Source: Catajapyx aquilonaris (Eukaryota). Taken from it: a DNA stretch of 35,507 nucleotides. This document shows, piece by piece, positions 5,107 to 33,846 of this stretch. How positions within the stretch are numbered: the first letter of the stretch is position 1; each line of letters opens with the position of its first letter. Location of the stretch: assembly GCA_000934665.2 (NCBI GenBank), contig JYFJ02004022.1, positions 1 to 35,507 on the forward strand, given 5' to 3'. The notes under the pieces are model-generated. The model did not search any database. It was not told where the DNA came from and saw only the letters and a program-made list of their open reading frames with translations. A program made the position numbers and the translations under genes.

Positions 5107-6172
5107 TATTATAAAAGGCATAGTATATGTTCGTTCGTTCGTTCGTTCATTTGGTTTCCAAAGGTATCAATAATGTTTGATTGCCGGTGTTGATTACAAT
5201 GCCATAATATTATGGAAACAGGTCGTGCCAAGAACGGATTCCGCTACTACAATAGTCAACAACTAACTTTGACATGCAGTTAGAGGTTTAGAGAAACTTT
5301 GTCAGTTGTCTGCTAACCTCCAGTTAAACGATTGGAACCAAGAGATACATTGCTCTTGTTGAATCTCAATTAAAACGCTCAAATTCCCGCCTTCATCTCG
5401 ACATATGACAACATCGCACGCCAAAGCCAGCGCATGCGCAGAAATACCATCCGAGCCCCGCAATGGCGCCACCAAGTTATAGTAACCAAGTCGAGCAAAG
5501 AGGCAGGAAATCCCGCCCAAAGTGTCAGGGTAGCCAATCTTGCCAGCGTGCCACGGAGGGGGGTGGGGGAAATACGCGCCTGTTTGGATCAGTGTTGCCA
5601 TCCTCCACCGCCCCTTCCCTATATTCCTTTCCGTCATTGTCGGTTCATTTAATTGCCCATCTTCGGTTGGCTACCTCTCCCCCCCCCCCCTTCTAATTCT
5701 CCCTCCCCCTCCCTCTTCCCCACTCCCTTTGCACCCTCCCCTCCCACCCCCTCTTCTTCTCTATGTTACAGGAAGTGTTCCATTCCACTACCCGCTCTTC
5801 TGCTTCCAGCACCGTTTGAGCCCAGCAGGATCTTCCTCAGTATTTTCTGTCAGCACCAGGAGAATGCTGCGACCAGCTGATATTGCCCAGTTCATGGTGA
5901 GGGGCAGAACAAGGGGCAAACCGTTCGAAGGGGGAGGCCCCAGATACAGGAAGGGAGGGGGAGAGGGGAGTGTGAGATCACGGGGATTCTAAAATGGCCG
6001 CCAAGTTGGGAAGGATCTGGATGCATCATGTTACAACATGCCTGAAATATTTACCCATAGTGGGAATTATGATCATGGTTTCCATCTACATGGTGACCCA
6101 AAAGTTTGGACGCATAATTATTGTGTTGTTGGGCCTATTGTTGGTTGGCAGTTGTCAACCAACAATACAATA

Positions 6173-10635: not shown

Positions 10636-10643
10636 GTATTATA

Positions 10644-11158
10644 CAGGGTGTTTATTGTAACTCTGCAAAGACTTTCAGTGGTAATAGAGGGGACTAAGAC
10701 TAGTATTTTTGACATAGTAACCTGTGTCCGGAAACGCCATCTAGAGGGGGTTCATAGACGAGGAACGGGTGCGCTCAGACGCTTCATGCGAAAGGTGCAA
10801 GGCGAGCGGACTGTTTTGTTGATAGATGGCGCCCGGATAGTAACCAACAATGCGATGTGCCATAACCTGGCAACAGCAGAGCCATCTAGCAACTAAAGTC
10901 CACCTCCTAGGAGACGCTCGGATAAAAAACACCGGCTCTGTTGTTGCCAGTTTATGGCACATCGCGTCGTTGTTTACTATCAACGAAACAGTCCGCTCGC
11001 CTAACGCCTCCCGTCTGACGCGTCTGAGCGCACCCGTTCCTTGTCTATGAAGCCCCTCTAGATGGCGTTTCCGGACACGGGTTACTATGTCAAAAATACT
11101 TGTCTTGGTCCCCTCTATTACCCCTGCAAGTCTTTACATAGTTACAGGGAACACCCTG
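10644..11158. mobile_element. Tc1/mariner-type MITE (515 bp), almost fully palindromic
   Basis: TA|CAGGGTGTT...AACACCCTG|TA, with TA TSD at 10642-10643 and 11159-11160. Arms of ~230-240 bp surround a ~50-bp loop. Confidence 0.9.
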
Positions 11159-11793
11159 TATAATTGCGTTTCTGCTGCTGGTACCAGCTAGAGTACCAGC
11201 CTGCTATGGCTGACCCTGAGGCACTACGGCTTTGATCCCAGGTCGTGCCCCAGGTCAAAAATGGCACAGATACAGTGGAACTGACAGCGAAAACGAAAAT
11301 TGATGGGTCGCAAAATACGTTCGATTTTCAGCCATGTTGTTGATTTTGTGACGTCACCCTAGCTCACCTATAGTCAGGAAACCGATAACTGAACGCGCCC
11401 TTGGGGGCGGGGCTTCTTCAAATTTAGAAGTCAAATTACAACAGCATTCCTAACCCTGTTTTAGTTCTGTTATCATTGAACATGGTCAAAATAACGCTAA
11501 TGTCATTGAAAATGCATTGCAATAGTTTACAAACTACTATCAAGTTGGGGATCACTGCACTCAGCAAACCATAACGCCAGATTTCAGCAGTTGCCGTTAA
11601 TTGTTGAGAGAATCTAATCACCTATTAAGTTATTAATAATATCATATCGCCCTAACGAGAATCATCCACCAGTAATTAATTTTTTCTGGTTCCATGAAGA
11701 ATCGAGTTGTGACTGTTTCAATGCAATGTGTGTCTCTTCAAGATCTTTGGGAAATTCCATTGCTAACATACCCATTTGCCATTACATCAACAG

Positions 11794-12366
11794 AGACCCC
11801 GACAAAGAAATCCTAGATCACCGATCATTAAGGTCATGATGGAATCTATGGTGAGCAATAATTATTATTGCACAAAATTAATTGTAGTTTTTATGCCACT
11901 GTACCAGTTGAATAATATGTTAAAATGACGCATGCAGTGTTATCCCGATCACCTATTCCGCGTAAGGATGAGCAGCGAGATGGGGCCACTGATGGAGGCC
12001 TACTGCCAGAGAGTGGTGAGGTTTCAAAAATTAATGTGCTTTGGTGTGTGCCCTAGTTGCAGTTGATGAAAACCCTGTCACTCTGTCATTTAGGGTGCCC
12101 AGCCACTGTCCACGAGGTTCCTGCTTGATGGAGTACGGATTTATGCGAATGATACACCCCAGAAGGTGAGGCAATCTCTTCATTAATAAGCATGAAAGGG
12201 GGTCATTGGAACGGTGGTTCATTGTGATAAGGCTTGACATTATTGTGGTGGCCTGTGAACCGTCTTTTAAGGCCTGACCATTGCCGTTATCTTTTTTAAG
12301 CTGGAGATGGAGGACGATGCTGTCATCGAGGTTTATCAGGAGCAGATTTGAGGAGCCTGTGTTTAA
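11794..12366 (+). pseudogene. SUMO: Divergent SUMO1-like gene with intact exon structure but TGA in place of the first Gly of the di-glycine motif (pseudogene or non-conjugatable paralog)
   Basis: Exons 11794-11850 (RPRQRNPRSPIIKVMMESM), 11938-12015 (CYPDHLFRVRMSSEMGPLMEAYCQRV), 12094-12165 (GAQPLSTRFLLDGVRIYANDTPQK) and 12301-12366 (LEMEDDAVIEVYQEQI*GACV*). All introns are GT..AG, phase 0. Matches the SUMO1 motifs HFxVxM..YCQR, RFLFDG.RI...TP and LEME..DVIEVYQEQTGG. The first coding exon is uncertain (candidate ATG 11694-11708). Confidence 0.88.
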
Positions 12367-12899
12367 AATTGTGACATGTGATCCATCCCAACTTTGGACA
12401 CTATGAAGAAGATACATCGCCATCTATACATCCCCCATACTCCTCCCCTGCTCCCCCCGCCTTTTTTTTTGTTCTTCGTGGTCCCCCACAGTTCATATTG
12501 TTTGCATTCCCTGCCTTATTTAAATACGTTGAGCAGTGTTGGATTTTTAAAACGGTCTCTACAGCTCTTTCGCTTTGCCTGTGGTCATTAAGTAGTAAGG
12601 TTTCAATTCTCAAAGATACAGGCAAGTGGCAAGTGTAATTTTAATCCAGTCATGTATTTGTTGTTATCCCTCCCTCCCTACCACCACAAAGACAATGATC
12701 ACGCCAATCCCACCCGACACAGTTGGGTAAATAATTTTATATTTATTGTTTGTGAGTAAAGACACATCTTGCAAGTCCTGCATTTTTATTTCCTTCCCAT
12801 TCGAGGATTTACAGGCTTGACTGCAATAATATGTACAGCACAATGAAGACTCTACATACCAGTCACTTTTTTATTATCTCGTCCTTTCGTAAGGGTTAA

Positions 12900-13928
12900 G
12901 GTGGAAATGAAGCGACTTGCTAATCAAATGAGAGTCTAGAATTGGAATGTTAATAAGAAGGGCTAAAATCAGGGAAACATACGCAACCGATGCAGCAGCA
13001 AATGCTGTTCAATCCTATGCATTCCATTCGAATCTGCGTTTTAAACTCGATTTAATATGGGCCCATTACCGGCGGCAAGTTTTTGTGCGCAGGCGCAATT
13101 TTCACGACTGCCAACTTAAACATGGTATTTGGAGGTGTGCTTAATATTTTTTTTATTTTTGATGGAAATCGATTTTATTCGATCGTAATTACGAGGTCCC
13201 AATTTGTCAAGGCATTTTTAAAAGTTTAGTTCCGAAAGGGGAGCCTGTAGGTCTTCATTTGTGTCGGATTTGGAACACGTTCAGTTGGTACGCGTGTGAC
13301 AGATAGAAGCGGCAACACAGCAAAGGTCCGGGCCAATTATCGCGTAGCAGTATGTGACGTCATTGCCGGGTGGATTCGAATCATTCGATTATTATATGAT
13401 ACTTATAACTGTATAAACTAATATAACGGTTCTGACGTCTGACAAACACCCCCGCCAAACGAAAATCCTGTGTGAGCCATTGTAAAAACCATCATACTAA
13501 CTTGCACTCATATTTCGCGGTCGTATGCAACCGTATCTCGCTACCGTAAACAACGCTGTGTTGCCACTGCCTCACTCGAGTGGAGCAATGTGACGTCACT
13601 GGATCATTTTCGGATCGTTTTTCAGCAATACAAATTGAAAGAGCACGGTGAGGTAGGTTTTTCTTTTTGCGGTTGCGATCAGTATATAATTCCCGACATA
13701 TTCCACATTTAATTTTAAAATTCTCATTTACTTATGATTTTTTTGAGGACTATTGAAAATTCTGCCATAAGGGCCCATGTTAAATCGCGAACTTCTGAGC
13801 CCTCCAGTTCGCTAATTTGCACGGTGACGTGTATTTTTCTTTGCGCCATTGATAAGAGGACACAAAACTGCGTAACATATGTTTTTTTCATAAAATTCTC
13901 ATTAAGTGACTCTAGCTTCATTTCCACC
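12900..13928. mobile_element. Kolobok-type non-autonomous DNA transposon (1029 bp)
   Basis: TTAA|GGTGGAAATGAAGC ... GCTTCATTTCCACC|TTAA: a 14-bp TIR, TTAA TSD at 12896-12899 and 13929-13932, and RR..YY termini. Confidence 0.85.
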
Positions 13929-14068
13929 TTAAAGAATACTGATTTTTATTTATTTATTATTTTTACATGATGACAAAATGTGGTTAACAACCCAGTTTGT
14001 CCATTATTTTCCCCATTAAAAAAAAAGAAACCCAAGCATTTCTCTTCAGTCAGAAATGCAGCACAAAC

Positions 14069-14106
14069 CAGCAGCAGCAGCAACAACAACAACAACAACA
14101 ACAACA
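14069..14106. repeat. (CAG)n(CAA)n compound microsatellite
   Basis: Seen directly. Confidence 0.9.
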
Positions 14107-14385
14107 CACGAAAAAACAGCCTTAAATATGTCATTATTTTCATGGCCCACACAAGTTTAAGTCTACCAAGCCAAAATTATTCAATAAGCAGTTTGCATAA
14201 AAACCAACAACATAGGTACAACTGAACCATAAAATCTCTGGGACTTATATGACAACAATAAAATAATATAACTATAATAAAAAATAACAGGTGATGTATA
14301 GGACCAGGGTGAAACAAAAAGAAACACCTGTAACAAGAAGATAAGACCTGTAAAGGGGATTCTGTGAGACTCAAAAAGGTCTGTA

Positions 14386-14598
14386 TAGATCGGTCAACGT
14401 AAGAACGTAACCGAGTGTGCATCGCCGTGGTGCACAGGATGCATTACTGGAATCAGAAGTGATCTGTATGGCCATGCCAGTGTCAGAAATAAGTGTAACC
14501 CACAACATATCATATCGTGCTTACCCACAAATCACTTCTCATTCCAGGATTGCATCTTGTGCGCCTCACTCTGTTGAGTTATGATGTTGACCTATCTA
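14386..14598. mobile_element. Degenerate fold-back MITE
   Basis: tagatcggtcaac...gcacaggatgcattactggaatcagaagtgat pairs imperfectly with atcacttctcattccaggattgcatcttgtgc...gttgacctatcta. Confidence 0.65.
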
Positions 14599-15170
14599 GA
14601 GTTGATAATAATAAATGTGCCACTGACTTCGTTAAAAACAAAATAAAGAACTAACATGGTTAGCAAGTATTGGCTTTTTTTTTATACTTCTAAAGAAACT
14701 GATACGTATAATTGAGCAACAAGGGCAACAGAAAAACAAAGCAAGGCATCACTTGACTTTTGCCTTATTGCGTTTATCATTTCTTCTTTTTTGCCACAAG
14801 TGAAATTTATTTGCATCACAATTAGCGATGGACAGTCTTGGCAAGTCACCTTGAGATTTATTCACAGCATAAAACCGAAAAGAGTCAGGTTACACCCACA
14901 AGTAAATTAAGGTTGCCAAGCCTGTGTTGCATGGGGAGGGGGAAACAAAATTCACTTCAAACTTCACAAGCCTTTTCCCAGTGTCATTATTCTCTAAGCT
15001 GTTCCAGCCCAAATCTAAACAGTCCATGATAAGAGTTGGAGGGTTGTAGTCGAAAAATAATACCATTCCACACGAACGGAAAAATAACCTGAGAAATTTC
15101 AATCGAAGATTTGGGAGAGGATGGGGGCGAAGTGTGGGCTGCAACTTGGAGGGTAAAGGTTCGAAACAAA

Positions 15171-15491
15171 TCTTCTATATAAATAAAGCAGTTTGTGAGT
15201 CTGTCTGTCTGTCTCTCTGTCTGTCTGTCCGCCTTCCAACCGTCATTTGCGTGCCATCTGTGCTCCACCCCCAGGCCGGGAAAGGATTGAAGTGTTGGGG
15301 GTTGACTACAGATGGCAGGCAAATGACGGTTGCCGTTATTACAAGCGGGAGAGGTTGAAGGTGTTGTAGTAGCAGGACCACAGATGGCATTGGTGGCCGG
15401 ACACACAGAAAGACAGACAGTTGACGGGGGTACTGGCAGGTGTTTTCCCTTCATTCATTTCTTCCCGGGCAACCCCGGGTGCCGCAGCTAG
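15171..15491 (+). mobile_element. Non-autonomous Helitron (321 bp)
   Basis: A|TCTTCTATATAAATAAA 5' end, a (CTGT)n tract, an internal inverted repeat (about 15237-15332), a 3' GC hairpin CCCGGGCAACCCCGGG and terminal CTAG|T. Inserted between A and T with no TSD, as expected for Helitrons. Confidence 0.85.
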
Positions 15492-21247: not shown

Positions 21248-24200
21248 ATGGGGAGGAAGATTCTCCTGATGTGGCTTTTGTGCTGCTTGCTGCTCGGTAA
21301 GTGCGTTAATTTTACGAGTACGGTGTTTACCCTAGTGATACCCTGCCACCCTCAATTATAGACGTGTCTGTAGCACGGAGCATCGAAATATTACCTGCGC
21401 CGTCTACCTGGACACCTGAGTTCGTTGTTGACCAGCTGGAAAAAATCCTGTTCAAGAAGCCGGAAGGAAGTGCGGAACTAGCTGAAGCTGAAATATACGA
21501 AGTGACATTGCATAATAACACAGGTATGTGATTGGTGTTAGTGACCACTACAGTGTAACACCCGTGCTAAATTGCAGTGATAGTATCAACCAATGGAGTC
21601 CCTCGAAGTGTGTACCAGGCGTTCAACACCATGAAGGACGATGCCAAACACGCCTTTTTGCGACAGGAATTCAACCAGGGTGATGCATTTGTGTTCGGAA
21701 ATCTGCCAGCTGTCCTCCTCTCCATTCTTCCGGTATGTTAAAGCTGGTGGCATAATTGGCATATTGACAATTTTAATTTTGATAAGGTTGGGACATTGAA
21801 CGCAACAAATGCGAGGCAGCTTTCAACAGCAGTGAGGATCAATTGGGACAACTTGGCTTTGGCGGAGAAGCTTATCGGATCCATTGGACAATCCTCAGAA
21901 AGACAGCAGGATTTTCTTTCATCATTGGTAGGTCACAACCATGAAGTTTAAATTTCGATGTAATTTGGATTTTTTAAATATTTTTTGCAGGATGCAAAGC
22001 TGACGTCTGATGTGCAACGCCTGTGTATGGAGGTTGTAACCAAATGGTGGCCCAATCCAAGAGACTGGAAGCAGCATTTGGGATTGCTTGTGGACGCAGG
22101 AGATATTATGTTGGCGGAGATCCCGTCCGAATACCTGAAGAGCATTCCTGAGGATGCGCTGACAATGTTGTGAGTAAAGTATTAATGCAATTTGAACTAG
22201 TCTAATACTGAAATTGCCAGCGTCGACGCAATCGCTTCTGCAACGGACATCAAAGCTGCCTGGAAGCATAAATCTACACGTGTCAAAAAGTCGTGGTACG
22301 ATGCAGCCATCAGAGCAAAGTATGTCGGCCCACTGCAACTCTGGGACACTAAGAAGACTATCAGGTATTTGCGATTGACAGTTGATAAATGCACTTGTCA
22401 GACACTAATTTTCGTTACAGGAATAGTTTCCTACTTGAAGCTGCACCTGCGAACATTCTTCGCAGTTTACGCTTCATTGATGAAGAACAGAGACGCACTA
22501 TTCTTTCAGGCACCTACAATGACATGCAGGTTAGTGACCATGTTTAAAGCTGTTGACCCCTGCATTGACATCTTCATTCACAGATACGAGCCCTGTTTGA
22601 TGTCCTGTTTTCTCAAACCCAACCAACTGTGGATAACTTGGATGACTTTGATCATCGCGTGTTTTCACTGTATCCAATGCAACAGCAACAGTTTCCATTT
22701 GAAGATGGTGAATTTAGGTTTCTTGCCAGAACCTATAACAAGAAGCGGTTTTACTTCTACCCGTCAATTCTGCAGTTGGCTTACCTATTGTACCCACTGC
22801 AGTCGGACGGGGGAGTGGAAAGATGGGGTGCACGAGAAATGTCTGAAATTGGACCACTTCTGCATGCGCTTCCTGTCAATGAATTGAGGAAGATCAAGTC
22901 TACTGCGCTTGACTGGAGACAAAGGTCAACGTCTGATATTGCATCACCATTCCTGAGTACTGCACAGGTACAGTGGGTAGTGGGCTTCACCGTCTGGAAT
23001 ATTTCTGGTAGCCTATTTAGAAGCTGCTTTTAATAAGCCAATCAAGCTATGCGAATGATTGATAATTAATACTTGTTAATCCCAATTCAGAGCTGGATGC
23101 TGATGAGCAAGATTCAGCAAACTGTGGATCCTCGGCGAGATTTTCCCGATTACTTGCGTTTTGTTCCGGTTCCTCTGCATGTGGGAATACCGACTGGCAT
23201 ATTGGTGCAAAACTTCATGAGGATGATGAATACTGAAATATTACCAATAATGGTGTCAGTTTTCGACAGGATGCTTCCTTCTCAACAGCAACTGATTTAT
23301 CAACAGTTGAAAACACGACTAGGTAAGATCACTGCCCTTTTTATCCTTCCCAAATGTGACAATAATCTTTTTATCAGGTGATGTGGCGGTCTTGAGGAGC
23401 ATTCTCGATAGCCATTCAAACGGCGTAATGAACATGCTGCCGCCTAACAAGACGGTGGAAGTGATGACAAAGATGTTGGAAATGAGGCAGGATTCCTTTG
23501 AACCATTATTAATTCTGAGGAAGCAGGAAAGAGCAATCAAGAATATGCCTCGCAGAACTGTACGTCTCACTATCAAGTAGTTAGTTAGTTGTTAATAGTA
23601 TCAATTTTTCAGCTGTCAATATGGTTGAATCACGTCAGAACTGTACAGCAACGAGACTGGATGGCTGAAGATTTCTTTCCACGAACAGCTGATGCTAAGT
23701 ACAGAGCAGATTATGCTATATTGGGCTTGACGTGTACTGATGTCGAAATGATGGGAGACCTTCAGCTCATTCCCATTGTTAGCAAGTACAGGAAAGTCCT
23801 TGCTGAAACCAAGGTAATTCCAATCGAAAGCATGTCCCCCTACATCTGGAATACCAACAGGAAATCTATGCTTTTCCAGGATGGTGTCTTCTCTACGGAC
23901 TTGATGCACTGCATGCTGAAGAGAATGGTCATGGATTTCCACCTGAAGAAGGAACTGAAGGACAATAATGTACCTGACAATGGTAGCACTTTGTCACTTA
24001 TATCAGCAGGAGAAGCTATTGAACTAGGTATGATGATAATCAACATAATAACTGTTCCTGTTTCTCATATAAATTTTTTGCAGGGCCTATTTTAACTCTG
24101 ATTCCTGAAAGTGAAATTATGGCAGTTGGTCCATCGACACGGAAAATAATAATGGAATCCATTGGTCAGGTGGATATCCCAACTCTCATGTCTGCCACAC

Positions 24201-26843
24201 ACATTGAGAAACTTCAGTGGCTAGCTCAACAGTACATCAAGGACGTATCGGAAATGGTGAGTCACGAAACAGATTTTCGATGCAAATGGCTAAAACGCGC
24301 TTTTTTAGGATGAATCTCTATCAAGTGCTCATTGGTTCCACAAAATGGGGACACTGTATCCTTTTATCACGCCGGAAATGAACATCAGCACTGAAACTGG
24401 GGTTCTCAAAGATTATCTAGAAATGCATGATGGGAGAGGTGACAAAATGTTCTGCATTAGCCCTTCTCTGCAAACATTTTGGCAAGGGATAATAGAGCAG
24501 GACTTTGGGTGAGTCGAATCTTAATTGAAATTAATTTACGTAACTAAGCATTATTTTTTCAGGCCTGCTCAAACCTGGAACGGCAGTGACATAGTCCTGA
24601 TGGGAGACTTGTTGTTGTGGCTCTCAACACAGCAGTTGGAAAATTTACGCGAAGATGCAATCATTGACTCGCTGAGCGTTTGGTTAGAAAAGTGTGCCAT
24701 TACAAAAAAATTGGTTCAAAAGCCAGGCCTGCTTATTACTATGCTAGAAGTAAGTTTCCACTAGGAGAACCTGATACCACATATAACACTTTGTTTCACC
24801 CCTCAGGCTTGCCAAGAGCAGCAGCTTGGAAGTGACCACATTCTTACCGCATTTAGCAAACTTGGCCGGAAAATGATCAGATCTGCCAAGTCTCTGGTGG
24901 ACACCATATTGACTCCACGTGACCTTGTCAATAAAATAACAGGCGGTAAGGCTTTTTGTGGTTTATATTGCAAAACATTTTACGTGCTTCTTTTCAGCCC
25001 CTCGAACTAGGCCAAGAAGGCAAACTGTAATCGTACCAAATCTTCCGCCTACTGGAAGAGATGACCAGTTCATGACAGTAGGTCCACCTGGAAATCAGCA
25101 ACCTCCACCACGGAGAGTAGGTACTGACAGGCAACTTCCACCACCCATGGGAAACGAAGGTCCAGTGTCTACATTCGACGATCCTGGCCAGCAACCTCCA
25201 CCACGGAGAATAGGTACTGAGAGGCAACTTACACCACCCATGGGAAACGAAGGTCCAGTGTCGACATTCGACGATCCTGGCCAGCAGCTTCCAAGACCAG
25301 GTATCTTTGAGCCAGCACGGCGGCCACTTAGTCGACCAGATCAGCCGAATGTTATGCAGCCACCTCGACCAGACTTGCCGAATACTATTCCGCCACAATT
25401 TATTCCGGACCAGCCAGTACGAAATGATAGATTATTTCCTGTCGAGCCACAGCCTGGTTCTATGATGCCTGAAACCTTTGGCGAAGGACTGAACGTAAGT
25501 AGATAAGTACAGTGTGAAACTTCAACGCATAATTGGTCCTTCTGTAACAGATTACCTGTGAGACTCTGAAAACAATTCAGCCCTTCATCACGGTTATAAC
25601 AGAGCAGGACTTCTTGAGAATGCCTCGAAGGGATTTTGTAGATTGTTTGGAAATTATTGGGGCTGAAAAATGGAACAAACCAACTTCGAGGACACTCTTC
25701 AATATGCTAAAGACGGTGAGAATGTGCATTTTCTTTTCCGCATTGGTGTATTAATTAATTAACATGATTTTTTTCAGATATTGGAGCAACAAGCAGAAGG
25801 GCGGCCCATTAGGCTTCTTCCCGAGTTGCTGCTGACAATGGGTTCTTTAAGCAAGGAGATTATCTCGAATGATCACAAAATGGTGGATCTGCAACTTATG
25901 CCTGGAGTTGACACGGTTGCAATAATGGGCCGACTTGAACTAAACATTCGCGAGGTAATAATAATCATTACTTCCTTGTTATAGTAGCTTGACTGTTACC
26001 TCTTGCAGGTGGAACTTCTGTCGACGAAATTCTTGACTGACAACAAAAAATTCATCGAAAATATCATCGAAAGTCAGCCTACGATTCGAGCAGTGGTATT
26101 GGCCTCACTGGGTAACATCGCTGGAGGACTTCCTCCTCGTGAAATTAACGGAATCCTCAACTCGCAGCAAGGGATGTACTGGGAATTGAGTCCTCTTCTG
26201 GGCCGATTAATGGATGCAACTCCAGCTGTCCTGAGAGTTCTAGCCGACTTTGCAGTGGCTGAATATGGTGACCCTTCGACTTGGACTGAGCACACGGTCA
26301 GCACCATCGGTACTGTCATGGCTGGAATGAGTCCAGATGTCATGATGCAACTAGGACGGAAGCGCAAAGGAGATGACCCTCTTCAAGGTCTTACGGTGTC
26401 AGCTGTGAAAATGATGACTCCTTCGCTCCTTCAGGTGCGTAAACCTTGGAATTATCTCATAACAGTTAACTTCAATCCCATCTTCTCAGGATATGACGGA
26501 AGATCAGCTGGCATCTCTTCCATGGTCGGTGGTACAATCGCTGAGTGACAACCAAATGAAATCGTTGTCTGCAGTACAGAAGGAAGCAATCAGTCGAGCT
26601 CAGGAAATGCCTAGTTTCATACCAAGTGAATGGACTTCACCTACAACACGAGCATCCATAAGTACGGAGACATCGACGGGACAACCAGCCACACAATCAA
26701 CGTCGGAGTTACCTACAACAACACTGTCACCTCAAGAAGCAGCACAGCAGGAAAGCAGCAGTGGCTCTAAGAACTATGCAATTGTGTCAAACATACTTGT
26801 TCTCCATTTGTTGTACATATGTCACGTTGCAAGTAGGTCATAA
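21248..26843 (+). CDS. Otoancorin/stereocilin/mesothelin-superfamily protein, secreted and probably GPI-anchored; 21 exons, 4404-nt CDS, 1467 aa
   Basis: Exons: 21248-21296, 21362-21523, 21578-21732, 21787-21927, 21991-22169, 22221-22364, 22421-22529, 22584-22967, 23091-23322, 23378-23559, 23613-23813, 23880-24027, 24084-24256, 24309-24508, 24563-24749, 24807-24945, 24998-25494, 25551-25715, 25778-25954, 26009-26434, 26490-26843. All introns are GT..AG and phases join into one open frame. N-terminal signal peptide MGRKILLMWLLCCLLLDVSVA. Family-like motifs: FGPAQTWNGSDIVLMGDLLLWLS, GVERWGAREMSEIGPLL, GLTCTDV, ITCETLK..M...DFVDCLE, YGDPSTWTEHTVSTIGTVMAGMS..LQGLTVSAVKMMTP..MTEDQLASL. A Ser/Thr stalk is followed by SSSGS and a hydrophobic C-terminal tail. 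Confidence 0.88.
25096..25281 (+). repeat. Coding tandem repeat, 2 x 93 bp (31 aa)
   Basis: QQPPPRRVGTDRQLPPPMGNEGPVSTFDDPG followed by QQPPPRRIGTERQLTPPMGNEGPVSTFDDPG; units start at 25096 and 25189. Confidence 0.95.
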
Positions 26844-26863
26844 ATAAAAACTATGCTATTAAA
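26843..26863 (+). promoter_or_regulatory. Candidate polyadenylation signals of the otoancorin-like gene
   Basis: AATAAA at 26843-26848 overlapping the TAA stop, and ATTAAA at 26858-26863. Confidence 0.5.
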
Positions 26864-29194
26864 ATGTGTACACTGAATTTCAGTTCTATCTCCCTTGCCA
26901 GTTTTTCAAACCTGGCAACGTTAGTTTCAAAAGATTTTCTATTCCAGTTTTGCAGCTTGCTTATTGGATTACAAATCCCGGAATTTTCAGGTTCAGCTTT
27001 TTTAGCTGGTCAAAAATTTCTTCGTGTTTCCCTTGCATTTCCAGGGACAACTACTTGTTCCATCCTATTTTTTTCAAAAAGGTTTACCTTTCGACAACCA
27101 TCTTGCAGAAGCACCTCCTGATGTTCACATATTCATGTAATTAGTTCTTCGGACAAATGGGACTTCATCTCTCCAGATAATTCAGTTTTGATGAAAGAAT
27201 GTCCTCTTTTGTACACTCCTGTTCACGGGCCCCTGCAGATAGAGCTTCTCTGAGGCCCGAGGCATGAGTCATGTTATAACGACGTAAAAAATGTGTGTAC
27301 CTGAGCAGATAGCAGTGGATTCATTGCATTGCCATGTGAGATGGTCAGGTGTGATACCTGATGGTAATCGCTGGCCACCCTGTCATGGAATACAATGAAT
27401 ACGTGCAGGCGGAATGTGTATGTAGGTTACTACAATGTAACTATGTAGTCCATATGTGTGTATAAAATGGTCTATAAATTGGTATAACTTGCTCAACAAA
27501 GCATGTAGTGAGTTCTGTCCATTACATTTGCAGTCAAGTCAAGTTAAAAATAAACAATATAAAACGCAAGAATGGAAGCATTGGAAATAAGAGAATATTC
27601 TAGATCATAATGTCCAAGTGTACTGAAATAATGAGATTTTCTTAGTCAGGATAATAAACAACTTCTTTTCAAGTAGGAGTTCACATTTCATCAAGCGTAG
27701 CTATTCTTCATTCAATGTCCTTTGATTCAATGAATATAATATTAATATTTGGATAAACTCTATGGGCAACTTCTGCAAATTCTCCAGCTGCGTGTGGATC
27801 AAACTGTCTGGCATTGATGGCTTCTCAAACTCTACATTTTATCTTCAAATCGTCTCTCTCACTAAAAGTCCCAATTTTTAAAAAAATTACACCTGTATTT
27901 TTGCCTTTCCAATGCACTTATCTAGGACAGCTCTTACTTCTCTTCTTGCTTTAACTATGACATTTGCTTTTTCTTCCATTCCACTACTGTAAGTGGCATT
28001 TTAACAGCCGGGAAACAATAGTGACAATAGCATCCAAGCCGAAGTGTGACTTACACGACAAGAATTAAATGGCCATAATAATGTTCAGGTAAAAATTACC
28101 TCAAAATTATTACTATTATTTGAAGGGTCCTACTGTGTAGTGAGAAGGTAATTAATATCAACTTTTAGATTTTGGTACTATAGATAAAAATTTAAAAAAG
28201 GTCTAAAAACTGTGACTTACACGACACACAAAGATGGTATTTAAACTTGCTAAGTTTTATGTTGAATAAGTCATTGCAATGGAAATATAAATATATAGTA
28301 CATTCATCCAGTTCTTGTGTGATAGAAGTCACACTTTACTGCATGAAAAACACTAGATTACTTGTTGAATTATGAAGATTTTTATGGAGACTTGAACAAA
28401 AAAAAAATTGCACACCCGCCATATTTGAAATAAACAGTGTTGTTAACTTGAATGTATGCGAAAATTCTCTAATATCTGTTGAAAAATAAAAAATACACAA
28501 TCTCAGCTTTCAGAAAATATCTTAATATCATAGAAATTATTTATTTTAAAATCTGACCCTGATGTATACTTTTGCATGGAATTAGCCAGCAATGGAAAAA
28601 GCGGGAAAAAGTGCGTCTTCGCGTGATTGTGATTTTGGTACCCCCTTCAAATAAATATTAATAACTCGATAACTAAATTTAATCTGGTAAAACTGATTGT
28701 TCCATAAGAGTTCAATTCGATGTGGGTTTCACATATATATTTTTCAAAAAAATCGATGACTATGACCTGACACCTTTTTTCACTCACTGGCTGATCTGAA
28801 ATGGAACCACCCATAAAAGAGGTTGTAAAATATGTGGATGTTTTCATCTGTTGGTCTTTGTCATGTTGTTCTCTGCTCTGCAGTTTTAGATGCACACTAC
28901 TGCACACTTTCTAACTACGGTAGAGCCATGTAGGCTCTCTGCTCCTGGAAATTGTCTTGCTACTTTTTATTGCCACATTTTTAAAATGGACACGATGCTC
29001 CCTTTATAACCTCCATGACAGATCAGGTCAGGCGGCAACCATATGTCGGTGAATACATTGGCTAGTTTCATGAAATGCTGTACGCTGCACACCCTTATCC
29101 AGGCAACAGCAGGTCGTGCTCATGTTGCACGTGTTTGAAGAAGTTACACGTGTTGAAGGCAACAATCGCCGCTACTAGTGAATAACTGCTACTC

Positions 29195-29493: not shown

Positions 29494-30366
29494 TTACAAA
29501 CTTTTTTTAATGCCACAGCTCAAAGAAAATGGCTTCTCTCCTGTATGAATGTGCATGTGAGTTTTCAACCTATATGACTCTCGAAACTTTTTCTGGCACA
29601 CCTCACAACTAAATGGTTTTTCTCCTGTATGAATTCGCATATGAATTTTCAACTTTGTTGATTGGCAAAAACATTTCCGGCACACCTCACAAATGAATGG
29701 TTTTTCTCCTGTATGAATTCGCATGTGAACTTTCAAATTACATGAATAACTGAATTTTTTCTGGCACACCTCACAAGAAAATGGGTTTTCTCCTGTATGA
29801 ATTTGCATGTGCCTGTTCAAATCATATGCAACACAAAACTTTTTCTGGCATACCTCACAAGTGAATGAGTTTTCTTCTGCATGAATTTGCATGTGAGTTT
29901 TCAAACTATATGAATCTCGAAACTTTTTCTGGCACACCTCACAACTAAATGGTCTTTCTCCTGTATGAATTTGCATATGAATTTTCAACTTTGATGATTG
30001 GCAAAAACATTTCTGGCACACCTCACAAATGAATGGTTTTTCTCCTGTATGAATTCGCATGTGAACTTTCAAATTACATGAATAACTGAATTTTTTCTGG
30101 CACACCTCACAAGAAAATGGTTTTTCTCCTGTGTGAAATTGCATGTGAGTTTTCAAATTATGTGAATCATGAAATTCTTTCTGGCAGATATGGCAGAAAG
30201 TTCTTTCACTATGAATCCTCATGTGACCTTTCAAACCGAATTGGGTACCAAATAATTTCTGGCATATTTTACACTCAAAAGAATTTCTTCCCCCACACAT
30301 TCCTCTGCTCCTTTCCTCTTGTATCTCTTTATCTTCTGCTCCATCTTCAGTTCTCACTGGCACAAC
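29494..30366 (-). CDS. C2H2 (Kruppel-type) zinc-finger protein, terminal exon with 9 fingers
   Basis: Nine CxxC-x12-HxxxH units with TGEKPF-type linkers in ORF 29494-30363. The ORF begins at a GTG just inside a minus-strand splice acceptor (ctaat..ttccAG|gtt, exon start 30366, phase 0), so upstream exon(s) are expected to the right; they were not identified. Confidence 0.93.
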   Translation of the reverse strand, partial: VVPVRTEDGAEDKEIQEERSRGMCGGRNSFECKICQKLFGTQFGLKGHMRIHSERTFCHICQKEFHDSHNLKTHMQFHTGEKPFSCEVCQKKFSYSCNLKVHMRIHTGEKPFICEVCQKCFCQSSKLKIHMQIHTGERPFSCEVCQKKFRDSYSLKTHMQIHAEENSFTCEVCQKKFCVAYDLNRHMQIHTGENPFSCEVCQKKFSYSCNLKVHMRIHTGEKPFICEVCRKCFCQSTKLKIHMRIHTGEKPFSCEVCQKKFRESYRLKTHMHIHTGEKPFSLSCGIKKSL

Positions 30367-31702
30367 CTGGAATGTGTAATTAGTCTAATTACATTACATC
30401 AATGTTTATTTTGTGGTGTGGAAGGCATGTCTTGTTATAAAGGCTCAAGAGATTGTCTCACATGTAGGTCAATTGTGCATTTCTTCCTAGGCTACTTCTC
30501 AATTTAAAAATACTGGAATATAATGTCTTCAGAAATATTTAGAAATAAACAGTATATGGGTTATTCTAAATTAACATTCACTTTTCCACTTTTTCTGGAG
30601 TATATTTTTTTGGGGTTACGTTTCAGTCATAATAATTGCATCATGTGGATGTGTAAGGTTTGACGTCAATCAAATGGTTGAAAGCAGAGCTAAAAGTTAG
30701 TTATTCAGATCAGCAGACCTTTTAGAACAAGTTCAGGTGTACAAATATGTAACATCCGTTACAGGACAGAAACCTGCACTTCTCTTGTTTATAAGATCAA
30801 GCACTCGGGCAATACCTTTTCCCATTGGACTTTGTGGATGTCCGTAGTCAAGTTAATGTTGCATACAAACCATAATATTTTCGCTTTTTAAGGTGTACTA
30901 CTATGACCCGCAAAAAGATTGTCATAACTGTTAGAATTTTTCTCCTCTTTCCAGTAGGCCTACTAACACTACGCCAATTGTTTCTAATTATTGCAACAGG
31001 AAAAAGGGGTTCTAACGTGTTGGGCCGTTTTTTTTTTTTGTGCTTGTTCGGTCGGGAACAGGTACGAATGCATCTGGTCTTGCTCATGTTACACGTGTTT
31101 ATTCCTACCCCCACACCAGGGTGGAAGGATGGCCTTATGAGCTATTCTTACAATTCTTAGTCGCCGCTACTGCTGAGGCTGCTATGCACTAATAGCTCTT
31201 CTCAGAATTCCTTACACTTTCTCACTTTTAAAAAACCGGTTCTGATGTGTATTCGGCCATTCGGGTCACACTTTTCTCTTGTTATGGATACACGTGAATG
31301 TGTTTTACTCCACATTCGTAATTAATCTGCATGTGGCAGGAAAATGAACCACTGAAAAAAGGATAAGAGCAAAAACATTTCCTTCAGTGCAGACCTTAGT
31401 AAGACCTCCGCGGCGGAATGAAGGTACTGAAACAAGGCAGGCGCACGTAAGACCTTCACCAATTGATTTAAGCTGTACCATAGGTCTTACTCAAGCAATT
31501 CTAAAATTAATGCTCATAATAGTATCCCTTCTGAAAATAGTTCCATGAGCCACTCCATAAAATAATGTAGGCTACTTCCTGCAATTAGGAACTTCAATAA
31601 TAATAAGAGTTTGGTATTTTATGGTTGGAGAGAATTTATTGCCATCAAACATTACGCACAACCCTCGTCTCTCTGACTACTGGTTCTCAATAAAGAATGT
31701 AA

Positions 31703-33288: not shown

Positions 33289-33720
33289 TATGCAAGTGTG
33301 GACAGTAGGATAAAGTGCGGGTCTCCCTTTTCTAAATAGCAGACAAATATTTCACAGATAAATCCTGTACGAATTCACATGAGCTTTCCAATCATGGGAT
33401 TACACACTTTTTTTTAAATAGCACAGCGCAAAGAAAATGGCTTCTCTCATGTATGAATTCGCATGTGCTTTTTCAAATTACCTGGATGATTAATTTTTTC
33501 ATGGCACACCTCACAAGAAAACGGTTTTTCTCCTGTATGAATTTTCAAGTGCCTTTTCAACTTACGTGATTCACGAAATTTTTCTGGCACACCTCACAGG
33601 TGAAGGGTTTTTCTCCTGTGTGAATTCGCATGTGATCTTTCAAATTGTCTGAAAATGTTTTCTGGCCTACATGACAAATAAATTGCTTGTCTCCTGTGTG
33701 AAATAGCATATGAGTTTTCA
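33289..33720 (-). pseudogene. Truncated C2H2 zinc-finger pseudogene fragment, paralogous to the 29.4-30.4 kb gene
   Basis: About three degenerate fingers plus part of a fourth ([30 protein letters not shown] / [45 protein letters not shown]), with two frameshifts, a Cys->Gly change and a GGA->TGA stop. 33289-33470 aligns closely with 29383-29560, including sequence beyond the stop. Confidence 0.9.
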
Positions 33721-33846
33721 TATCCCTTACTGTCATTTTTGGTAATGAAATGTTCCAGAAAAGTCACAAAGGTACAGTTATGGCCTTATGGGCCACATAA
33801 TTGTAGGGATCCTATTGTTGTGTGCCGCACTTTGGTGGTGCAGGGT

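Follow-up and report, generated by a model that had tools for sequence, protein, structure and literature searches.

SUMO proteins are conjugated through a C-terminal Gly-Gly that has to be exposed by maturation (PMC12687455). SUMO is adenylated on this Gly-Gly, and its contact with the back of UBC9 uses Glu67 and residues 83-86, without involvement of the tail (PMC12687455). SUMO1 persists alongside SUMO3 in Hymenoptera and hemimetabolous insects, and insects are described as carrying one or two SUMO genes per species (PMC4866545). SUMO proteins that act without being conjugated have been reported in other organisms. Maize SUMO-v is a natural non-conjugatable SUMO paralog, presumed to bind via SIM domains (PMC6117578, citing Augustine et al. 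2016), human SUMO4 acts on SENP1 in its unconjugated form (bioRxiv 2022.03.23.485504), and an engineered back-binding SUMO2 that lacks the Gly-Gly blocks polySUMOylation and chain formation (PMC12687455). A precedent of a different kind is found in the primate L/M opsin genes, whose introns are homogenised by gene conversion while their central exons are held apart (PMC3213168, PMC3924837). In this work we have analysed a copy of SUMO1 present in a stretch of 35,507 nucleotides of Catajapyx aquilonaris DNA (hereafter the window), which has lost the Gly-Gly and combines deeply diverged exons with nearly unchanged introns. We consider it about an even bet (roughly 0.5), judging from the sequence, that this copy makes a free, non-conjugatable SUMO-like protein that would act by binding. 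Among the papers listed by a literature search, mostly of non-subscription articles and their main texts, none deals with a SUMO1 family without Gly-Gly in arthropods.

The window copy is a five-exon frame on the forward strand that codes for 96 residues and ends in QEQI-stop. An earlier, sequence-only reading of this DNA had described four exons with canonical splice sites and no frameshift, and the coordinates, the boundaries and the in-frame splicing of these exons all hold: exons 2 to 5 (57, 78, 72 and 66 nt) have AG/GT boundaries and splice in frame into ...EVYQEQI-stop-GACV-stop. As a gene model the four exons are incomplete, since they hold no start codon. The ATG sits in exon 1 (5772-5896), which we located by aligning the upstream DNA with the sister copies. 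This exon is preceded by a pyrimidine tract and an AG, has about 92 nt of 5'UTR, contains two ATG codons, both in frame (5864 and 5894), and no other, and ends at a phase 0 donor (GT at 5897). Further upstream, a putative promoter-like stretch (5430-5539, forward strand) is common to the canonical SUMO1 locus and the sister copies, with promoter-like motifs at 5430 (GCGCATGCGC), 5512 (GC box) and 5534 (CCAAT). Exon 2 (11794-11850) codes for the end of the tail and strand beta1; its ancestral acceptor (11786-11787) is lost, and an in-frame AG 6 nt downstream is in use. Exon 3 (11938-12015) codes for residues 30-55 in SUMO1 numbering, comprising the SIM-groove strand and the helix, and exon 4 (12094-12165) for residues 56-79, among which R63, L65, D67 and R70 are retained. 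They are separated by introns 2 (11851-11937), 3 (12016-12093) and 4 (12166-12300), the last of which leads into exon 5 (12301-12366). The internal exons of 78 and 72 nt have the same sizes in the canonical SUMO1 of this genome, as had been expected, and the introns and exon sizes, as in the canonical copy, bear out the proposed duplication at the DNA level. A processed (retro) pseudogene is ruled out, as all introns are present. At 10638-11164 the window has an inverted-repeat element, roughly 500 nt long, on which read depth is very high; it is found in the closest sister copy and is absent from the contig of the canonical gene.

Alignment with the sister copies places ATT TGA GGA of the window opposite ACT GGA GGA, so that a stop (TGA, 12349-12351, forward strand) replaces the first Gly, Gly96, and closes the 96-residue product. 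The window tail reads QEQI-TGA-GGA-GCC-TGT-GTT-TAA, and the spliced frame and the alignment agree with the sequence-only reading in putting the TGA on the conjugation motif. The C-terminal Gly-Gly that is left after maturation in conjugatable SUMOs is thus cut off in this copy by the stop. As the stop lies in the last coding exon, the message would be expected to escape decay. Read data, which the same reading had proposed as a check, back the T at 12349 in part: it stands on a 109-nt zero-mismatch read contig in two of four runs (X1 and X2, depth 12.3 and 21.5), with 30 letters to the right of the site, one short of our bridging rule, and among the records listed X3 and X4 have no window-type contig over the site. 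Read-derived contigs also match exons 2 to 4 with zero mismatches. The four runs are one sample, which may be the assembly's own source, and a second sample (X5, of which a small share was searched) gave no coverage of the window SUMO copy. It could be argued from the lack of a window-type contig in X3 and X4 and from the single sample that T12349 is an assembly error, or that the window and its closest sister are two alleles of one locus. We hold this to be very improbable, because the T-bearing contigs of X1 and X2 reach the depth of each of the two sister versions at the same site (12.9/14.8 and 24.4/25.4) and not half that of the canonical gene, and because the two contigs are non-collinear past 15110.

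Recoding of the UGA, by selenocysteine insertion or by readthrough, would give an X-Gly end, and had been one of the options of the sequence-only reading. A tRNA-Sec is present in the genome (80.6 bits), and GGA GCC TGT GTT TAA follows the TGA in frame. We give recoding almost no credence. An Rfam scan of 11700-15200 gave four weak matches (E up to 5) and no SECIS, and none of the five matches of a loose SECIS pattern search had a SECIS fold, in line with the earlier failure to see a convincing SECIS downstream. The 3'UTR shares 97% identity with its counterpart in canonical SUMO1, a gene without any in-frame UGA; conversion accounts for the intact tail after the stop, and UGA-G is a poor context for readthrough.

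The canonical SUMO1 locus and sibling copies, which the sequence-only reading had suggested looking for, both exist. A DNA search of the organism's own genome gave eight matches on seven contigs. Contig C139 carries the canonical SUMO1, with the end QEQTGG-ACV and an exon 3 frame that matches 462 proteins, many of them identical over the exon (up to 100%), which together with a hit to a named wasp puts the genome among the arthropods; its start exon falls inside an N gap (C139, 88099-88424), and the comparison with the window has no counterpart for that exon. The closest sister copy, on contig C3872 (11526-16470), keeps QEQTGG-ACV intact on a strongly diverged body, and is by its sequence a candidate conjugatable SUMO of new specificity. 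Older copies, partly broken by truncation, deletion or frameshift, lie on C11356, C5961, C3346 and C11841, and C957 retains no more than the promoter and a start exon that is cut short partway through. This promoter and start-exon copy (C957, 114800-116480) is closer to the window than to C3872. On C11356 (830-1340) most of intron 3, the start of exon 4 and the donor are deleted, and an open frame runs from exon 3 to exon 4 via retained intron bases. Against a profile of 21 SUMO proteins the spliced window product reaches 69.6 bits (aligned residues 36-95), with a median of 73 bits against the SUMO1 set (8 proteins) and 52 bits against the SUMO2/3 set (13). It is therefore nearer to SUMO1 than to SUMO2/3, shares the exon-intron layout of SUMO1, from which that of the SUMO3 loci differs, and has 36 of 75 core residues identical to canonical SUMO1. 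A Pfam scan of two single window exons gave no match, the exons being too short, and a protein search with the exon 3 frame of the window gave no candidate, which is weak evidence.

Other SUMO-like sequences and other features were also noted. Tandem SUMO3-derived two-exon units lie beside a second near-canonical SUMO3 on C1726 (12000-25000) and C2167 (61000-69000); across 30 kb of these two contigs, 13 of the 14 listed SUMO3-like C-terminal halves have no QTGG, a count in which splicing is unmodelled and some halves may be domains of longer proteins. Nine units with 228 nt spacing on C238 (103825-105947) match the SUMO-like family and are probably polyubiquitin. In the window itself there is a C2H2 zinc-finger array at 29494-30384 (reverse strand), with a degenerate second one at 33363-33723, and C3872 also has a C2H2 zinc-finger array downstream of its SUMO copy. 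A forward frame at 25988-26548 is mesothelin/stereocilin/otoancorin-like by language-model features (0.90-0.92, a lead only) and probably belongs to a gene of several exons that spans about 22200 to 26850, and a proline-rich 93-nt repeat lies at 25096-25293.

The most unusual property of the window copy, unnoticed in the sequence-only reading, is the distribution of its differences. Compared with C3872, differences affect 145 of 334 sites in exons 1 to 4, 7 of 66 in exon 5 and 267 of 6,005 in the non-exon DNA; 17 of the 22 windows with at least 20% mismatch fall on exons 1 to 4, and the other five in one 3' block. Introns 2 to 4 differ from C3872 at 4 of 300 sites (2/87, 0/78 and 2/135, respectively) and from C139 at 19 of 296, against 84 of 213 (31 of 78 in exon 3) and 87 of 213 for exons 2 to 4. 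The excess is not only non-synonymous, as fourfold sites in unchanged codons differ at 6 of 16 from C3872 and 9 of 14 from C139, far above the introns in both comparisons, as in the opsin genes, and the pairwise dN and dS of the exon 2 to 4 region are 0.51 and 0.95. We favour, on these sequence comparisons, the interpretation that old exons stand within introns, flanks, a last exon and a 3'UTR that were homogenised by gene conversion. Unrooted trees of exons and introns have compatible shapes and differ in branch lengths alone, a pattern that does not separate an old from a recent duplication.

The contrast could also come from a recent duplication followed by a process directed at exon sequence itself, altering or protecting it whether or not it is coding, rather than from selection resisting conversion. 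The divergence steps are sharp at several splice junctions: at the exon 1 donor 16 of the last 20 exon bases differ and none of 20 intron bases does, at the exon 2 donor 11 of 20 against 1 of 20, and at the exon 3 acceptor 11 of 20 against 0 of 20. Exon 1 diverges strongly from C3872 over its whole length, and as its 5'UTR has diverged like the coding part, selection on the protein alone is no explanation. Introns 78-135 nt in length leave little room for conversion tracts of their own, and the exon differences are rich in transversions (17:31 versus 83:77). The pattern is also not special to SUMO, since an unrelated NACA duplicate (C1693, 9293-9456 and about 27250-27450) shows the same contrast, with 62 of 144 differences in its UBA-type exon, and 5 of 53 and 26 of 232 in introns. 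Even so, we regard an exon-directed process as improbable. The difference of exons 3 and 4 is nearly flat among copies (0.32, 0.38, 0.40-0.47) and does not track that of the introns (0.01, 0.06, 0.22-0.23), and exon 5 and the 3'UTR are exonic yet homogenised. The boundaries are softer at the 3' side of exon 3 and around exon 4 (3 to 5 of 20). At 4 of 17 synonymous exon sites the window and C3872 agree with distant copies and C139 stands apart, against 2 of 283 such canonical-specific changes in the introns, a small, post hoc count from which three codons were dropped where the two derived copies disagreed. A transition excess of the CpG type is missing as well, and CpG-driven exon mutation is ruled out on this ground.

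The reading frame of the window copy has survived its divergence. Exons 2 to 4 have no frameshift or internal stop despite their 84 differences from C3872, whereas non-exon DNA has 29 frame-breaking indels per 171 substitutions, a rate at which about 14 are expected for these exons; in a neutral simulation only 6.3% of 20,000 runs stayed free of stops. Residues invariant across SUMOs are kept at 20 of 32 positions and variable ones at 16 of 43 (P 0.026, with exon 5; 12 of 22 versus 11 of 37 and P 0.054 for exons 2 to 4 alone), and 16 of 20 hydrophobic positions are still hydrophobic. Amino-acid identity over exons 2 to 4 (26 of 71) is inside the neutral range, with a simulated mean of 21.7 (sd 3.8, P 0.16), and dN/dS of the window lineage is near 1 if half of the synonymous distance sits on the canonical branch. 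At the level of sequence the frame shows apparent past constraint on a fold rather than present function.

How old is the stop? Exon 5 is about 94% identical to canonical SUMO1, and its four differences in 66 sites are N84D, D86A, T95I and the stop at G96, all non-synonymous and none synonymous, too few to demonstrate selection. Since the exon is otherwise nearly identical to the canonical one, or recently homogenised, the stop is probably young, or was kept through conversion. The first 280 nt of the 3'UTR-like stretch (12367-12899) likewise depart from canonical SUMO1 at 7 of 275 sites. C11356 has TAA TGA on both Gly codons, the stop of C5961 comes two codons earlier, and Ala86 of the window recurs in both copies; two of the four exon 5 changes of the window recreate states of these copies, as 14 of 153 single steps do (P ~0.04, post hoc), and only 2 of 38 single-step nonsense paths land on Gly codons. 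The non-conjugatable decoy, one of the options of the sequence-only reading, gains support from two other copies that stop at Gly96 or beside it, although both copies look partly broken.

The strongest rival, to which we give somewhat less than an even chance, is that of a dying copy: a once functional, conjugatable SUMO1 paralog like C3872, in which GGA to TGA is one step in a birth-and-death family and any protein made does nothing. A recent nonsense change remains a serious contender because the stop lies in an exon with so few differences from the canonical one. C3872, the closest sister, keeps QEQTGG, which argues against the free binder and implies that the family does not need the loss of Gly-Gly. 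The 3'UTR-like stretch contains no AATAAA and is followed by a high-copy repeat (12900-13928, no strand assigned), an insertion which both sisters lack. The first AATAAA after the window copy stands beyond the repeat at 14257, 1,891 nt from the ancestral stop, against 516 and 401 nt in the sisters (401-647 nt past the stop for all their signals). The missing proximal signal and the repeat count against the free binder too. The TGA is thus not the only disabling change, as the sequence-only reading had held: the ancestral exon 2 acceptor, the start codon position of C3872 and the proximal AATAAA of the sisters are all lost. The broken state of the four older copies and of the C957 remnant, and an amino-acid identity not above the neutral simulation, fit a dying copy as well. 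What speaks against it is that the sole stop falls on the motif and recurs with D86A in other copies, that the two ATG codons and the shifted exon 2 acceptor are all in frame, and that the promoter motifs and splice sites of the window are intact.

A free SUMO-like protein, our preferred reading, would have the following history. Exons 1 to 4 would be old and held distinct by selection, while conversion among the copies would have overwritten the introns, the flanks, the last exon and the 3'UTR. Exon 5 would have returned from the canonical gene with its Gly-Gly, the stop and D86A being then regained or held. Without Gly-Gly there is no adenylation by SAE1/SAE2, by known chemistry, and both activation by SAE1/SAE2 and transfer by UBC9 are predicted to be absent in the window product. 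Of the positions of the SIM groove, on which the sequence-only reading had partly relied for its decoy, three of seven are identical to canonical SUMO1, with the changes I34H, K46P and Q43E; positions 34, 43 and 47 are given in the human numbering. Of the UBC9-back positions (list of PMC9911741), 8 of 11 are identical to canonical SUMO1, and D86A and Q29M change this surface; six of the 11 lie in the converted exon, so that their identity is no independent evidence. With the UBC9-back surface largely kept and the SIM groove altered, the product is predicted to be a free binder of SUMO enzymes and not a normal SIM reader, most likely binding at the back of UBC9 or at SUMO proteases. More broadly, SUMO1 and SUMO3 duplicates of this arthropod lineage could be fast-evolving free decoys in which conversion rewrites the Gly-Gly and selection cuts it again, together with a mechanism that treats exons, whether coding or non-coding, unlike introns in the exchange between duplicates and makes divergence end at splice junctions; we consider this combination unlikely.

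How does this copy compare with the known systems? In sequence as well as in introns and exon sizes it goes back to the organism's own canonical SUMO1, an arthropod SUMO1, but it has no Gly-Gly, an altered SIM groove and a new basic N-terminal tail, and the genome has many derived copies instead of the one or two SUMO genes described in insects (PMC4866545). Like the non-conjugatable SUMO-like regulators, it has no usable Gly-Gly. With maize SUMO-v it shares being a natural, non-conjugatable SUMO paralog and a presumed binder; SUMO-v is from a plant and its binding is presumed to be SIM-mediated, (PMC6117578), whereas a point stop cost the window copy its end, and this copy is known from its sequence alone. 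Human SUMO4 and the SUMO alpha splice forms are also unconjugated SUMO folds, whose action on SUMO enzymes is, or is proposed to be, non-covalent (bioRxiv 2022.03.23.485504, PMC9911741, PMC12687455). SUMO4, however, resembles its parent at 85-88% and keeps a Gly-Gly, though without being matured, whereas here the motif is cut off and about half of the body has diverged, and the SUMO alphas, unlike the window copy, are missing an exon. The SUMO-like domains of NIP45/NFATC2IP, Esc2 and UAF1 are likewise unconjugated SUMO folds, which bind either UBC9 on its back side or a SIM-like loop (PMC12687455), but they are ancient domains of long proteins and the window copy is a stand-alone, recent offshoot of SUMO1.

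As regards the mosaic, the primate opsins resemble the window copy in that intron divergence is below both synonymous and non-synonymous exon divergence and a peripheral exon is homogenised. Their synonymous divergence is about 6%, against about half of the synonymous sites here, where the introns measure only 78-135 nt and the 5'UTR has diverged too, and the contrast is far stronger (PMC3213168, PMC3924837). Three near-identical loci whose exons have diverged deeply make an unusually extreme case for the homogenisation of short introns without their exons, and the divergence of the UTR offers a clean handle on whether selection on the protein alone suffices. Both ingredients, a free SUMO-like protein and a conversion mosaic, have precedents. 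If our reading is true, the window copy would give invertebrates a counterpart of SUMO4 and SUMO-v, inside an expanded family, and a ready test of free SUMO folds. It descends from SUMO1 and yet stands outside the conjugatable SUMOs, and by analogy would work like SUMO4, SUMO-v or the SUMO-like domains.
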